NCBI GenBank assembly: GCA_001000675.1
Contig: LCHW01000001.1
Location: forward strand, 488,875 to 552,874
Direction of reading: 5' to 3'
DNA length: 64,000 nt
Source: Candidatus Wolfebacteria bacterium GW2011_GWE2_44_13
GTDB taxonomy: Bacteria > Patescibacteriota > Minisyncoccia > UBA6257 > UBA9933
Part shown: positions 53,197 to 62,600 of the stretch, piece by piece
Layout: each line of letters opens with the position of its first letter
Position numbering within the stretch: position 1 is the first letter of the stretch
The notes under the pieces: model-generated
The model's input: the letters and a program-made list of their open reading frames with translations, nothing else
The model's database searches: none
What the model was told of the DNA's origin: nothing
Program-made: the position numbers and the translations under genes

Positions 53197-53478
53197 CTAG
53201 AGTTCGTATTGCCACGGAAGATCTGCGTGAGCAGCCCCGACAGCTTGCGTTGCCGTGTAAGCCATGCCGCCACCGATTGCTGCCAGTGTCGCCTCTTTGG
53301 TATGATGTCCCGCGAGTATCAAATGTTCCGGATATCGTGGATGCCCGTCCACTCTAGCCATTAAGCCATTAGCAAGACGATATAACTCCGAAGCATGCCA
53401 TTCCCCGCCTACCCTGTGCAACACGGTAAGTTTTACTTTGGCCTTTTTCTCATCATAGTCTATTGCGCCTAAGTCCAT
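53197..53478 (-). CDS. hypothetical protein (GC-rich ORFan)
   Basis: An AGGAG Shine-Dalgarno precedes the second ATG (MDLGAIDYDEKK). GC is about 57%. Its promoter carries the same CCCATATGGG palindrome as the gene at 62176..62517. Confidence 0.5.
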   Translation of the reverse strand: MDLGAIDYDEKKAKVKLTVLHRVGGEWHASELYRLANGLMARVDGHPRYPEHLILAGHHTKEATLAAIGGGMAYTATQAVGAAHADLPWQYEL

Positions 53479-53496
53479 AACTTCTCCTGCTCTCAT

Positions 53497-53550
53497 TTAA
53501 TTTTTCGTACTGAAAATAAAATATCCCATATGGGCTATTTTGTCAAATTT
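53497..53550 (-). promoter_or_regulatory. promoter with palindromic operator (TTGACAaaatagCCCATATGGGaTATTTTA)
   Basis: -35 TTGACA, a 17-bp spacer containing the perfect palindrome CCCATATGGG, and -10 TATTTT. A near-identical copy lies at 62553-62600. Confidence 0.5.
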
Positions 53551-53643
53551 ATTTTTGGGGTTGCCACCCTCCTTTTGCTTCTAGGAGAGATTTAAAGGTA
53601 TCTGCCCCTTTTAGCGCAAGGTATTTAGCGCGGATAAATTTTA

Positions 53644-55320
53644 TTACGTCAGCCAATTTAATGCTTTTTGTACAATTCCATCGTACCATTCTAATTCTGA
53701 GTTAGTTGTACTTGCCAACTCATTTGAATGCTCAAAAAATCGTTGAATATGTCTTGGTTCTGGCACATAATCAACATTGTGAGAATCCTCAACCATTTTA
53801 ATAAATACGCTTAACGGCAATGGGACAATAGTTGAAGTTCCACCATAATAACCAATGTTCATTTTATGTAAGGCATAAAAATGAGCTATACAAGCATCGT
53901 TTATTTTTGGTGCAATAAACAAGCAATAAGCAGGCTTATTAGTTTCTCTTTTTACTTTAGCAAGATGCCTTGCTACTGGCTCCCCTTCAGTTTCGTATTG
54001 TCGCTGTCCGCTTTGCATCGTAACTTCTACCGTTAATCCAAAGTCGCCATAATCGCATGTGATGTCCGCCATATTCCCCTGTGCAGTTGACATTGGTTTT
54101 CCAAAATCGTCAAATTTTAAATTTGCTTTTATATTGCCACCGTCTAACATTGTCATTGCTCTCCAAGTGTTCCATTCCAACATCAAAGGAGTGTCATAAA
54201 GTGAATTATCTAAAATTTGGTCAAATGTAGAATTAATCTCTTCAAACAAATGGTAATCTTTTATCGCAGTAACTTGCTCTGTAATAATTTGTTCTCTTCT
54301 ATTTTCTAATTCACCAGCGAATACATCTTTTAATTGTTGCAAGGTTAACGTTTTATTTACATCAATTTGAGGAAATTCTGTTCTTATTTTTTGCTCAAGC
54401 AATGATCGATTATCGCTTAATAAACTAGGGGCTGCTGCATTTCCAAGATAAGCTACATATTGTATTTCATCATCTATAAAGCAAGGCTCTCTATCAGTAT
54501 GCTGTAAAAAGTAATCTACTTCTTGTATTTTTTCAGGAACAATTGAAATTGACTTCCCAATGTGTGAAATATTGACTAATCCCGTTACTCGAATATACCT
54601 AACACAGGCATCAGCATAATCTCGCAGATTACTTGCTTTTGTTTTTAAGAATTTTTCAATAGAAGCATCGTCTGTTTGTCTTGTCTTAGTTTTACCCGAA
54701 ACAATATCGCAACCATAGATTTGTCTTAGTTCTGCGTCTAAATATTCTGACTTAAATTTTTTAGAATTTCCTTGATATTGTGCTTTTGCAATTCGAAAAT
54801 TTTCAATTTTTAAAACAATATTATCAAATTGATGATAGTCGACTAATTGCAAACCAAAGATCATTAGCTCATCAAATTTAAGCGAGCCAAAATGACGGAT
54901 TAAACGAAATAATTCAAGATAAGGTTTTATCAAAAAGTCGGCAGAATTTTTCGAAGGCTCATGATAGGGCGATGGAACTTGAAACTTTAGTAACTGCCTT
55001 AAGAAAATTTCCTCTTTTCGTCTTGATGTAACTAATTCTAAACCTGCCGGCGTTAAGCTCACAGTAGGAGATAAAGTTACGAATCCAAGTGATTTTGGTG
55101 CTCTGTTAATTCTATCTCTTGCACTAAATGCAGGATCATTCGCCCCTTCGCCATTAAAAAAATTCTCTTGTTTTAAGAGCTCCATAAAGGCAAGTTGTGT
55201 TTCTCTGTTCCACACCTGTCCTGAAAAATGAGCATTCAATAACTCAATTTCGGGGATCATTTTAGACGGCGTTCTCGGAGATGTTGTAACAAATATTACT
55301 TTACTATCAATCTTTGCCAT
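53644..55320 (-). CDS. type II restriction endonuclease, AlwI/BstNBI/PleI family
   Basis: 558 aa. The N-terminus (VIFVTTSPRTPSKMIPEIELL...FSARDRINRAPKSLGFV) and C-terminal region (EPVARHL...YCLFIAPKIND...VPLPLSVF) parallel the conserved blocks of Nt.BstNBI/AlwI-family enzymes, recalled from memory. The gene is immediately downstream of and co-oriented with a Dam-type methyltransferase. Confidence 0.6.
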   Translation of the reverse strand: MAKIDSKVIFVTTSPRTPSKMIPEIELLNAHFSGQVWNRETQLAFMELLKQENFFNGEGANDPAFSARDRINRAPKSLGFVTLSPTVSLTPAGLELVTSRRKEEIFLRQLLKFQVPSPYHEPSKNSADFLIKPYLELFRLIRHFGSLKFDELMIFGLQLVDYHQFDNIVLKIENFRIAKAQYQGNSKKFKSEYLDAELRQIYGCDIVSGKTKTRQTDDASIEKFLKTKASNLRDYADACVRYIRVTGLVNISHIGKSISIVPEKIQEVDYFLQHTDREPCFIDDEIQYVAYLGNAAAPSLLSDNRSLLEQKIRTEFPQIDVNKTLTLQQLKDVFAGELENRREQIITEQVTAIKDYHLFEEINSTFDQILDNSLYDTPLMLEWNTWRAMTMLDGGNIKANLKFDDFGKPMSTAQGNMADITCDYGDFGLTVEVTMQSGQRQYETEGEPVARHLAKVKRETNKPAYCLFIAPKINDACIAHFYALHKMNIGYYGGTSTIVPLPLSVFIKMVEDSHNVDYVPEPRHIQRFFEHSNELASTTNSELEWYDGIVQKALNWLT

Positions 55321-55326
55321 ACATTT

Positions 55327-56235
55327 TTAATACACTAATTTCTTACTAAATTCTAATTCAGAAAAGTTATTTTTAGCTACGTTCCCATAATTTGAAATTA
55401 AAATATGCGATGCAGTAGATTTAAACCTATTTCTAATATTTACGGAATACGATTTACCGTATTCATCTACTATCATATCTCCATAAAGTTTTTCCGTTAA
55501 TGGAGTCCTACCAATCACCATCAATGCCTTACATTTTAGATTTTTATAGGCGCTAGCTAATTCAATATGGTTTCGCTCATTAAATCCATCTTTATGCTCT
55601 ATGTTCCCATAGTCAGAAAAAATACAGTCATAAGGTGGGTCTAAAAACATAAAATCATCTTCTCCCGCTATTTCAAAAATGTGTTTGTAATCTACATTAT
55701 AAATTTCTGTATTTGAAAGCAATTCGCTATGATTTTTCGTAACTAATGCAGTATTCAAATTAGAATATCTACCATAAGGAACATTAAACTCTCCTTTGGA
55801 ATTGTATCTGATCATTCCTGAATAAGCTGTTTTATTTATAAAAAAATACAACAAGGCATCTGAAAATTTTTTTTCAGCCAAATCATTAAACATATCTCGA
55901 ATTTGATAATATAAGACTTCATTATCATCTTTAACTCTCAATTCAGGGGTTTTACTTTTAAGTTCTTCAAATTTTCTACGATTTAAAGTGTAAACTTTTT
56001 CTATTTGTGTAAGTTCATTTTGAATTAATTCAAAATCTGTTTTTATGCCATTGTAAAATGATATTAATTTAGAATTAATATCATTTATCACTGCTTTTCT
56101 TGGCTCCAAATAAAAATACAAGGCACCGCCACCAAAAAAAGGTTCGATGTATTTGCCATCGAATTTTGGGATATGTTTTATAATGTGTGGAATTTCTTTT
56201 GATTTACCACCCCTATATTTAACTAATGGTTTCAT
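55327..56235 (-). CDS. DNA N6-adenine methyltransferase, Dam/D12 class (alpha group)
   Basis: KYRGGKS, EPFFGGGALYF (motif I) and FLDPPY (motif IV) follow the Dam/DpnM motif order. Confidence 0.85.
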   Translation of the reverse strand: MKPLVKYRGGKSKEIPHIIKHIPKFDGKYIEPFFGGGALYFYLEPRKAVINDINSKLISFYNGIKTDFELIQNELTQIEKVYTLNRRKFEELKSKTPELRVKDDNEVLYYQIRDMFNDLAEKKFSDALLYFFINKTAYSGMIRYNSKGEFNVPYGRYSNLNTALVTKNHSELLSNTEIYNVDYKHIFEIAGEDDFMFLDPPYDCIFSDYGNIEHKDGFNERNHIELASAYKNLKCKALMVIGRTPLTEKLYGDMIVDEYGKSYSVNIRNRFKSTASHILISNYGNVAKNNFSELEFSKKLVY

Positions 56236-61886: not shown

Positions 61887-62093
61887 ATCAGTATTTTATC
61901 ATATTACGAATATATAATAAAAATATGAAGCTCCCACGGGCTTATGCTCGGGTTTTTGTTAGAAGCATAAACTAAAACCGCCCTTGCCTTGCGGCAGTGG
62001 CGGTGGTTTTAATATTACTATACTAATCTGAAATGTAATAATTATCAACGGTGCTAATAGGATTAATCACCGTTTCCCCTTCATTAATCCCTC

Positions 62094-62152
62094 AATCTTA
62101 CCAAATTTTGACCTATTATATAACTAATAAAAAAGCCCCCGTTGCCGGGGGC
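62094..62152 (-). promoter_or_regulatory. terminator-plus-promoter cassette, copy E (different hairpin, same promoter)
   Basis: AAGCCCCCGGcaaCGGGGGCTTTTTT followed by TTATAT-17-TAAGAT. It sits upstream of the long structured 5' leader of NYN-2. Confidence 0.5.
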
Positions 62153-62175
62153 TTGTCTTCTTTGAGGTCGGAGTA

Positions 62176-62517
62176 TTATCCTGGGACCATCGTACCTCTC
62201 CCGCCTTCTTGGTCGATGATCGTGTGAATCCGCGCACCCCACGCTTCCTGTTCACGATGCCAGGAGGTTTGATAGCAGTCAGGCCCTGTGGTCTTAGAAT
62301 TGGCAAAGTATGCCATCCCCAAAAACATCTCGAGAAGCGCCCTGTGGTCAGATTTCTCTTCTCCTGCGATATAGGACAATGTAAGTCCGCCACAAGCAAA
62401 GGCATCGAGCACCAATACGTTCGGATGCTTAGCGCGCAGCTCCTTAATATCTTCGGCGATTATACATCCTCCAGCACCGCGGCCATCACTACGGAAATTT
62501 ACCATAAATGCTTCCAT
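62176..62517 (-). CDS. hypothetical protein (GC-rich ORFan)
   Basis: A GGGAGG Shine-Dalgarno precedes the ATG. GC is about 55%. The promoter carries the CCCATATGGG palindrome. Confidence 0.5.
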   Translation of the reverse strand: MEAFMVNFRSDGRGAGGCIIAEDIKELRAKHPNVLVLDAFACGGLTLSYIAGEEKSDHRALLEMFLGMAYFANSKTTGPDCYQTSWHREQEAWGARIHTIIDQEGGRGTMVPG

Positions 62518-62552
62518 TCCCTGTTCCTCCCAGAATTTTTTATTTCTATATC

Positions 62553-62600
62553 GTACTGAAAATAAAATAGCCCATATGGGCTATTTTGTCAAATTACTCT
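62553..62600 (-). promoter_or_regulatory. promoter with palindromic operator, second copy
   Basis: TTGACAaaatagCCCATATGGGcTATTTTA, near-identical to 53497-53550. Confidence 0.5.

Follow-up and report, generated by a model that had tools for sequence, protein, structure and literature searches.

Chromosomal integration hotspots and defence islands are regions in which accessory or defence genes cluster between conserved core genes. In bacteria of the candidate phyla radiation (CPR), which have tiny genomes with few recognisable mobile elements, the gain and expression of foreign genes are for this reason poorly understood. A 64-kb stretch of DNA (the window) from Candidatus Wolfebacteria bacterium GW2011_GWE2_44_13, a groundwater CPR/Parcubacteria genome of the Rifle metagenomes, raises this question in a compact form. 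Between a sortase gene and a SOUL gene, positions 53197–62600 carry a restriction-modification (R-M) operon, several unrelated accessory genes and numerous intergenic repeats, and an initial annotation had proposed a defence island delimited by two small GC-rich genes with near-identical promoters. Is this interval a discrete mobile island, or does it belong to something larger and less sharply bounded? Comparison with relatives and inspection of the repeats suggest that it probably belongs to a hotspot of accessory genes, variable among strains and located just downstream of the sortase gene, and is not a discrete, bounded mobile island. A literature search yielded nothing on this locus.

A variable region downstream of the sortase gene

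Every gene between 50 and 64 kb of the window, including all ten open reading frames (ORFs) of the interval, is located on the minus strand, with ORF coordinates as initially annotated. Features described below lie on this strand unless stated otherwise; the repeats D3 and D5 are given without strand. Read in the direction of transcription, the sortase gene is followed by a D5 hairpin, copy B of a twin 45-nucleotide (nt) promoter element, the small gene ORFan B, cassette c5, NYN2, a D3 repeat and cassette c4. Next come the gene for a 216-amino acid (aa) membrane protein, a frameshifted frame on the plus strand, cassette c3, the gene for a 235-aa membrane protein, an alpha/beta hydrolase gene, the gene for a 273-aa membrane protein, cassette c2, NYN1, the second D3 repeat and cassette c1. 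The series ends with a Dam-type methylase gene, an AlwI-family endonuclease gene, copy A of the twin promoter, the small gene ORFan A, a GC-rich non-coding stretch and SOUL.

The closest and most informative relative available is a 12-kb contig (L045) encoding a sortase with 85% identity. Its nucleotide homology to the window extends up to the sortase stop codon (62645) and is found again from the start of the gene for a 214-aa DedA protein (DedA-214, 50608) onwards; in between, a single gene for a 124-aa membrane protein takes the place of 12 kb in the window. Beyond DedA-214, the window and L045 agree in the order META, two small genes, Cupin_2; Band_7 is lacking in L045, and MCRA and Zincin_1 are present there and lacking in the window. 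In a more distant relative (L046, sortase 65% identical), sortase and Cupin_2 again serve as anchors, with unrelated genes between them. Since the content between the anchors differs in L045 and L046, the neighbourhood can be described as a patchwork hotspot, in which gene order is not conserved as core genome. The view of the interval as mosaic accessory DNA is borne out by its absence from L045 and by the confinement of its repeats to it. SOUL, a LiaF-like gene and DedA-234 are likewise missing from L045, so that the absent segment extends to about 50608. Judged from these alignments, the variable region is larger than initially proposed, and it is patchy.

The boundary on the SOUL side can be viewed in contig L043, which originates from the same aquifer. 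Here an ORFan A homolog (71% aa identity) is preceded by the twin promoter and followed by the same non-coding stretch as in the window, and homology to the window starts 13 nt upstream of the 45-nt element. At the position of the endonuclease gene, L043 (1–564) instead encodes the C-terminus of a Schlafen-group-3 helicase fused to an S24 (LexA-like) peptidase, a defence-like protein. This arrangement suggests that ORFan A is part of the SOUL-side backbone and that the cargo changes just upstream of its promoter.

On the other side of the sortase gene, positions 227–4928 of L045 hold an AbiU2-type HEPN protein, an Rce1-like protease and a cassette-preceded radical-SAM gene, and differ from the window. 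As the upstream side differs as well, the sortase gene appears to be flanked by variable DNA on both sides.

Two further comparisons concern strains and metagenomes. Contig L008 was considered as a population variant and rejected, its differences being scaffolding Ns, and a metagenome scan with the sortase returned one relative only (59%), which lacks synteny. The SOUL gene, intact in the window (52169–52834, 221 aa), is represented by two ORFs (113 and 104 aa) in a same-species contig of the Joint Genome Institute (L001, 10645–11385); either a strain-level frameshift or an assembly difference could account for the split.

The base composition of the interval, 37.9% GC compared to 44.1% in the remaining window, deviates to a varying degree along its length. 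The R-M operon has a GC content of 28–35% and a GC content at third codon positions (GC3) of 0.22–0.25, the lowest in the window (mean 0.40, sd 0.08), and this is a stronger compositional signal than the GC content of the small genes. ORFan A and ORFan B, which had been assigned about 55–57% GC, measure 51.8% and 51.2%, and 55–59% is reached only in 150-nt peaks. Moreover, genes with 50–55% GC are found elsewhere in the window (21819–22695, 23840–24601, 33181–34587 and 45806–46303), with GC3 of up to 0.63, which suggests further foreign or compositionally odd genes outside the interval. Because genes of similar GC content occur elsewhere, high GC does not mark the ends of an island.

It would be extremely improbable that the region is core genome with a GC heterogeneity arising from protein composition alone. 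As such an explanation would predict, Gly, Ala and Arg are abundant in the proteins of ORFan A and ORFan B, and the GC3 of the two genes (0.48–0.51) exceeds the window mean by just about 1–1.4 sd. However, the segment is missing in L045 and L046, so that synteny already contradicts it; the GC3 of the R-M operon is the window minimum, and the homologs of ORFan B reside in unrelated neighbourhoods. The initially noted GC heterogeneity is thus retained in so far as GC3 is not explained by protein content alone, and its use of GC-rich genes as end markers is not.

Neither the ten ORFs nor the adjoining 10 kb on each side contain an integrase or transposase domain (Pfam and a look-up of the flanks), in agreement with the initial annotation, and the 64-kb window contains no tRNA gene. 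A search of the window against Rfam 15 gave no match at the gathering score and only weak terminator-like matches (E 0.045–8).

With integration hotspots the locus shares conserved anchors (sortase; DedA, META, Cupin_2), differing content and an R-M cargo of deviating composition. In contrast to such hotspots and to defence islands, it is devoid of an integrase, a tRNA and a mobile-element backbone, holds one bona fide defence system and consists mostly of membrane proteins and a hydrolase. A classical integrative island would likewise be absent in relatives (as here in L045 and L046) and deviate in GC content; it differs from the present locus, which has no integrase, tRNA or att sites and in which the 45-nt repeats behave as a dispersed promoter family.

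The cargo comprises the R-M operon, two anciently diverged NYN genes, three membrane-protein genes and an alpha/beta hydrolase gene. Piecemeal, stepwise and integrase-free gene gain at the hotspot is the most likely history, and assembly may have proceeded by homologous or illegitimate recombination at or near repeated modules. Reshuffled intergenic modules of a few kinds appear to keep the transcription units apart: a GC-rich intrinsic terminator hairpin, the extended -10 promoter TGgTAAGAT, hairpins of the ATTAATGG...CCATTAAT type and, 3' of both NYN genes, a module of 111 nt. As a hotspot the locus is fairly ordinary; it offers mainly useful annotation and a modest curiosity and is not a new kind of system. 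Its value is that of a clear case, a variable hotspot of a CPR genome that lacks an integrase and carries an intact type IIS-like R-M system among its cargo.

The twin 45-nt element

If the interval were a bounded island, the two 45-nt elements near its ends would be the obvious candidates for its boundaries. Copy B (62551–62595) is located upstream of ORFan B, 48 nt 3' of the sortase stop codon, and contains a perfect 24-nt dyad, AAAATAGCCCATATGGGCTATTTT. Copy A (53505–53549) is located upstream of ORFan A and 3' of the endonuclease gene. The copies are in direct orientation, 9046 bp apart, and identical at 44 of 45 positions; the near-identity initially described is therefore confirmed, and a perfect palindrome is found in copy B but not in copy A, where the dyad has one mismatch. 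On the minus strand the element reads AATTTGACA-AAATAGCCCATATGGGC-TATTTT-ATTTTCAGTACGA and matches a promoter with a -35 box TTGACA, a 17-nt spacer and a -10 box TATTTT (10 of 12 consensus positions), although it is also scored as terminator-like. Similarity between the copies ends about 8 nt beyond the -10 box. Within the 64-kb window the 24-nt palindrome has two matches, compared to 0.00 expected, and none in a further 10 kb accessible through contig L004; the repeat counts reported here cover these 74 kb in total.

Related copies occur in other genomes. Copy B is identical to the L043 copy at all 45 positions. Other copies precede the gene for a 190-aa membrane protein in L046 and, in L034, the gene for a 171-aa lipoprotein, after which comes an ORFan B homolog; the homologs of ORFan A in L043 and L038 carry the element upstream as well. 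All six loci compared share both hexamers, spaced by 17 nt, despite sequence divergence outside. A perfect dyad is seen in copy B, L043, L046 and L038, the last two of which retain the symmetry through matched C:G to A:T changes; in L034 the dyad is degraded while the hexamers persist. Homologs of ORFan B in L037 and L049 are devoid of the element, which is therefore not tied to the ORFan B family.

The direct orientation, the 44/45 identity and the 9046-bp spacing of two copies flanking low-GC cargo might suggest direct repeats of the att type, which arose when a mobile island of 9 kb inserted site-specifically and which could excise it by recombination. This origin is highly improbable. Integrase, transposase and tRNA are all missing from the putative island and within 10 kb of it, solitary copies stand before unrelated genes in L046, L034 and L043, and the empty site of L045 holds an unrelated terminator instead of a copy. 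In addition, the repeat unit coincides with a core promoter, and the arrangement is identical in every available contig of the species. The single occurrences elsewhere, the unrelated terminator at the empty site and the lack of a recombinase argue that the element is not an att site. Nor do the twin promoters delimit an island, as had been proposed: members of the promoter family occur singly before unrelated genes in L046, L034, L043 and L038, and L045 retains none at its empty site.

By its sequence, the twin element would rather represent a self-contained core promoter of the sigma-70 type, reaching from about -45 to +8, in which a dyad is embedded. This dyad, ATAGCnC-N4-GnGCTAT, covers the spacer and the -10 box and most likely serves a dimeric regulator as operator; at loci with an upstream gene in the same direction, it may double as a weak terminator. 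The element would belong to a promoter family that other Wolfebacteria use before unrelated small genes. Repressor-controlled promoters with a dyad operator over spacer and -10 box show the same features, that is, a 17-nt spacer, a dyad with 9–10-bp arms and a symmetry kept here in two relatives. To our knowledge the dyad does not resemble, by eye, the operator consensus sequences CIRCE, NrdR, Fur or LexA. Viral contigs contained no match to the dyad promoter or to the cassette promoter described below.

Several observations weigh against this interpretation of the element and of the locus. In contrast to known repressor-controlled promoters, no regulator was identified for the proposed operator. 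Covariation within the dyad involves one base pair only and lacks significance, its score being reached in 79 of 500 shuffles. Promoter and terminator calls are consensus matches, and promoter-like sites in the region number 35, compared to a shuffled expectation of 38.9. The element counts hold for the 74 kb covered, and a dyad scan of GTDB species genomes, as suggested in the initial annotation, gave 23 loci with none from this species, whose own genome was not returned; the scan is hence uninformative on the copy number here. As to the history of the locus, L045 is the one close relative spanning it, and at 85% sortase identity the absence of the segment may reflect loss rather than gain; population variants are lacking, as all same-species contigs agree. 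Finally, a co-directional gene ends 12–100 nt upstream of the element in five of the six loci, which would fit a terminator as well.

This last point leads to a different role for the palindrome, which is possible yet rather less likely than not to be its main one: an intrinsic terminator of the upstream gene, the whole unit then being a compact terminator-plus-promoter insulator without a regulator. The hairpin is followed by a U-tract and scored as terminator-like, and it folds with -14.4 kcal/mol in copy B, -11.1 in L038 and -10.4 in L046. Moreover, a terminator of the A-tract/stem/T-tract form occupies the equivalent post-sortase position in L045, and similar AAAATACCCCATATGGGGTATTTT hairpins in other Paceibacteria, to which three matches of the GTDB scan correspond, have this same form. 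However, copy A and L034 fold with only -6.7 and -3.4 kcal/mol, whereas clear terminators reach -18 to -20. The divergent upstream gene of L038 precludes a terminator function of the dyad there, and conservation reaches the -35 box and extends beyond the -10 box, which a terminator would not need. A promoter with an embedded operator remains the preferred reading of the element.

Cassettes and other intergenic modules

Between the genes of the interval, a second set of repeats recurs. The five terminator-promoter cassettes of the initial annotation were recovered with the invariant core AAATTTGGTAAGA, which has five matches in the window, all on the minus strand and all within the interval, compared to 0.15 expected; the additional 10 kb hold no copy. 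Cassette c1 (56298–56445), between NYN1 and the methylase gene, consists of a D4 module, a terminator hairpin and the extended -10 box TGgTAAGAT. Cassette c2 (57159–57305) is located upstream of NYN1, and c4 (60965–61092) between NYN2 and the gene for the 216-aa membrane protein. Cassette c3 (59740–59858), upstream of the gene for the 235-aa membrane protein, has a degraded terminator stem and an extra CCCATATAGG hairpin. In c5 (62073–62154), upstream of NYN2, the same promoter is combined with a terminator that is ORFan B's own. All five share the extended -10 box and a weak -35 box, and four of them the terminator stem CGAGGCC-N4-GGCCTCG with flanking A/T tracts (about -20 kcal/mol). Around each core, the D4 module, D5 hairpins and CCCATATRGG hairpins are combined differently.

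The palindromic D5 hairpins belong to a ATTAATGG-N9-CCATTAAT family. One lies at 62612–62636, next to the sortase gene, others at 60930–60954 and 57295–57319, and a degenerate one at 56262–56286. The exact pattern occurs at three sites, compared to 0.15 expected, and an inverted copy is present in L043. Short ATG frames after the cassette promoter were considered as leader peptides or gene stubs and dropped, since their 'GATTAATGA' motif is the left arm of D5-type hairpins.

A cassette copy, to which c3 is the closest, is also found in L045, before the radical-SAM gene and near the AbiU2-like HEPN gene. Its presence there indicates that the cassette family predates or crosses the species split, again next to accessory genes.

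We infer that the cassettes are reusable insulation-and-expression modules; a role as homology patches for recombination is plausible. Short regulatory modules are reused almost verbatim among unrelated genes and among related species. If they serve as substrates of recombination or belong to a regulon, they would provide a way to study how genes move and are regulated in an uncultivated lineage. Together with the association of NYN genes and D3 described below, these modular repeats are the sole parts of the locus that might reward further work.

Two types of known repeats invite comparison. As in integron arrays and in clusters of attC sites lacking integron-integrases (CALINs), a structured repeat recurs here between unrelated single genes of the same orientation, without an integrase in the vicinity. 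Integron cassettes are typically promoterless, whereas the units of this locus have promoter- and terminator-like signals of their own; IntI is lacking, and an attC architecture is not apparent by eye. The Correia elements of Neisseria and the enterobacterial repetitive extragenic palindromic (REP) sequences and bacterial interspersed mosaic elements (BIMEs) are intergenic palindromic repeats able to supply promoters or terminators. They resemble the present modules in being short, recurrent, hairpin-forming and intergenic and in offering such signals. In contrast to them, the promoter-bearing modules are restricted to one 9-kb patch of the 74 kb and all sense-oriented, and no cognate transposase, terminal repeats or target duplications were seen.

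The same features bear on the idea that repeats D1, D3, D4 and D5 are non-autonomous mobile elements, comparable to miniature inverted-repeat transposable elements (MITEs) or REP sequences, and play no role in gene expression or assembly. Mobility of this kind could explain why the non-coding D3 copies are 92% identical next to NYN proteins with 29% identity, why the module order varies among copies, why D5 hairpins occur in both orientations and why a cassette copy resides at an unrelated site in L045. It is nevertheless unlikely. All five promoter cores are gene-oriented and directly upstream of genes, and no copies exist outside the island in 74 kb. Terminal inverted repeats or target-site duplications were not noticed, though they were not systematically searched for, and neither a REP-associated tyrosine transposase (RAYT) nor another transposase gene is located nearby.

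At the other extreme, the locus might represent a Wolfebacteria-specific, integrase-free cassette system, in which conserved junction modules, acting as homology patches, capture foreign genes at the sortase hotspot and provide them with insulation and expression signals, D3 adding antisense control of the NYN genes. The modules being reshuffled would be the terminator hairpin, the TGgTAAGAT promoter, the ATTAATGG hairpins, D3 and the 45-nt dyad promoter. So specialised a system is a decidedly doubtful proposition, and the ordinary hotspot with stepwise gene gain is preferred.

The remaining module, D3, is linked to the two NYN genes, both of which match the Pfam NYN family as initially annotated. 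NYN1 (56618–57163) encodes a 181-aa protein with a NYN (PIN-like) domain; its start is most likely at 57163, as the longer ORF (56618–57295) runs through a repeat copy. NYN2 (61263–61886) encodes a NYN-domain protein of 207 aa. The two proteins share 29% identity (E 8e-19). D3 is a 111-nt non-coding module found 3' of both NYN genes and of no other gene. Copy 1 (56486–56596) directly follows NYN1, copy 2 (61109–61219) directly follows NYN2, and they are 92% identical over 102 nt. A GC-rich hairpin lies at the same position in both cases, in the gap that separates D3 from D4, with a sequence that is unrelated between the two. Each D3 copy further contains a near-consensus promoter-like site on the plus strand (56566–56593 and 61189–61216). 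These are the best two sigma-70-like sites in 11.7 kb (TTGACA, 16 nt, TATACT, TG-extended, 11 of 12 consensus positions); they face the 3' ends of NYN1 and NYN2 in antisense and are followed by a hairpin at or over each NYN stop codon.

This pattern may stem from gene conversion, from an element that spread recently or from an antisense RNA. The last would be realised in a toxin/antisense-RNA pair, in which a short plus-strand RNA over the 3' end of the NYN mRNA controls a PIN-like RNase. The rank and orientation of the two D3 sites, the hairpins at the stop codons and the exclusive location of D3 on the 3' sides of NYN genes speak for such a pair. However, the predicted RNAs of about 45–60 nt barely exceed a terminator hairpin, and the overlap with the NYN2 coding sequence is only about 3 nt. 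The conservation of D3 is uninformative on selection with just two near-identical copies, which also preclude a covariation test. Rfam gave no match, and the NYN proteins match defence models of PADLOC weakly (E 1e-4 and 1.5e-9; HEC-09, 2e-7). A toxin/antisense pair is accordingly regarded as very unlikely.

Cargo genes and small conserved proteins

The methylase gene (55327–56235, 28% GC), the first gene of the R-M operon, encodes an N6-adenine DNA methyltransferase of the Dam family (D12 class; PF02086, E 3e-41). It matches TIGR00571 dam with E 2e-59 (201 bits, cutoff 115) and the PADLOC model MTase_II with E 7e-75, and its nearest solved structure is DpnM (2dpm). Only 6 nt past this gene, and on the same strand, begins the gene for a type IIS-like restriction or nicking endonuclease of the AlwI/N.BspD6I family (53644–55320). 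The match to PF09491 (RE_AlwI, E 4.9e-58) spans positions 3–440 of 441; REase_II of PADLOC is matched as well, and the protein aligns with N.BspD6I (2ewf, E 1.4e-46) and with the small subunit (2p14, E 3e-14). Pfam thus bears out the Dam-type methyltransferase and AlwI/BstNBI-family endonuclease initially named. Adjacent co-oriented genes with the same domains occur in the type IIS R-M systems AlwI, MlyI, PleI and N.BstNBI/N.BspD6I with a methylase of the Dam/DpnM class that forms N6-methyladenine; in contrast to members of this family, the present operon has no separate small-subunit gene and no controller (C) protein. By domain content the operon is an intact type IIS-like system, an ordinary AlwI/BspD6I family member with a Dam/DpnM-class methylase, and its low GC content points to a foreign origin.

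A TG-extended promoter-like site (TATACT, 56245–56274, minus strand) ends about 10 nt before the methylase start, and a Shine-Dalgarno sequence is not visible. The mRNA of the operon may be leaderless or nearly so.

Among the ten proteins submitted to PADLOC, strong matches were obtained for the R-M pair only, and six proteins had no match. Since PADLOC strongly recognises this pair alone, the interval is not a defence island in the strict sense. The initial designation as such was overstated, the R-M operon being the only clear defence system.

The central part of the interval encodes a polytopic membrane protein of 273 aa without a family match (57334–58155), an alpha/beta hydrolase of 251 aa (58234–58989), whose initial assignment is matched by Pfam, and two further membrane proteins of 235 aa (58995–59702) and 216 aa (60205–60855). 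The hydrolase gene starts 5 nt after the gene for the 235-aa protein. The 235-aa and 216-aa proteins are distant paralogs (24% identity, E 8e-14), consistent with the two paralogous membrane proteins described initially. Frameshifted reading frames on the plus strand at about 59850–60200, which end in ...ELIKTFHDLSLDVYEPEEKLTGG / ILPATNELSEEDAKAYFKM and have no Pfam match, are probably what had been listed as a pseudogene fragment; a pseudogene status was not confirmed for them.

Both small end genes turned out not to be ORFans. The protein encoded by ORFan A (53197–53478) has 93 aa and belongs to an uncharacterised family that is widespread, with 145 clusters at E<=1e-3. A ferredoxin-like alpha/beta fold is predicted confidently for it, with a predicted local distance difference test score (pLDDT) of 87; it has no Pfam match and no sequence match in the PDB, and its model has no significant structural neighbour. 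ORFan B (62176–62517) encodes a 113-aa protein of a small conserved family, whose members usually have 93 aa; eight homologs share 72–88% identity with it. In these nine proteins C18, H58, C81 and H87 are invariant. The window copy, preceded by a GGGAGG ribosome-binding site, carries a C-terminal extension of 20 residues (62176–62238) compared to the 93-aa homologs, and the homolog P0002 (L037, 4753–5310) is a head-to-tail tandem fusion of two copies. The structure model of ORFan B is unusable (pLDDT 51), and viral contigs hold no relative of it.

Its homologs reside in varied, often accessory-looking contexts, beside an IS30-like helix-turn-helix protein and hemerythrin or beside an AAA_21 ATPase. 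In L049 (286–2009) the genes just 5' of the homolog encode an AAA_21/AAA_15 ATPase and a protein of 183 aa and together resemble a two-gene defence system. The promoter of this homolog contains a different dyad, AATGGTA-N9-TACCATT, which resembles the D5 arms.

A distant homology between ORFan A and ORFan B was rejected (BLASTP E 0.23, hhalign probability 5%). The possibility that the small GC-rich ORFs are non-coding RNAs was likewise rejected, given their ribosome-binding sites, terminators and conservation at the amino acid level and the lack of Rfam matches. On these grounds, both are considered genuine genes, and the small proteins they encode represent two conserved families that are unrelated to each other.

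The GC-rich gap between SOUL and ORFan A contains a candidate small RNA on the plus strand (52885–53135), among neighbouring genes that are all on the minus strand. Downstream of a TG-extended promoter-like site (TTGACA, 16 nt, TATTGT; 52885–52912), the sequence is GC-rich and structured and leads to a clean terminator on the plus strand (53111–53129) with a T-tract. The z-scores of folding are -2.8 for the plus and -3.7 for the minus strand, and Rfam has no match. Positions 53012–53133 are 92.6% identical to L043, compared to just 80% in the adjacent coding sequence of ORFan A.

Far from the interval, at 3980–14062, the minus strand of the window carries an ORF of 3360 aa, which shows a positive GC skew along part of its length.

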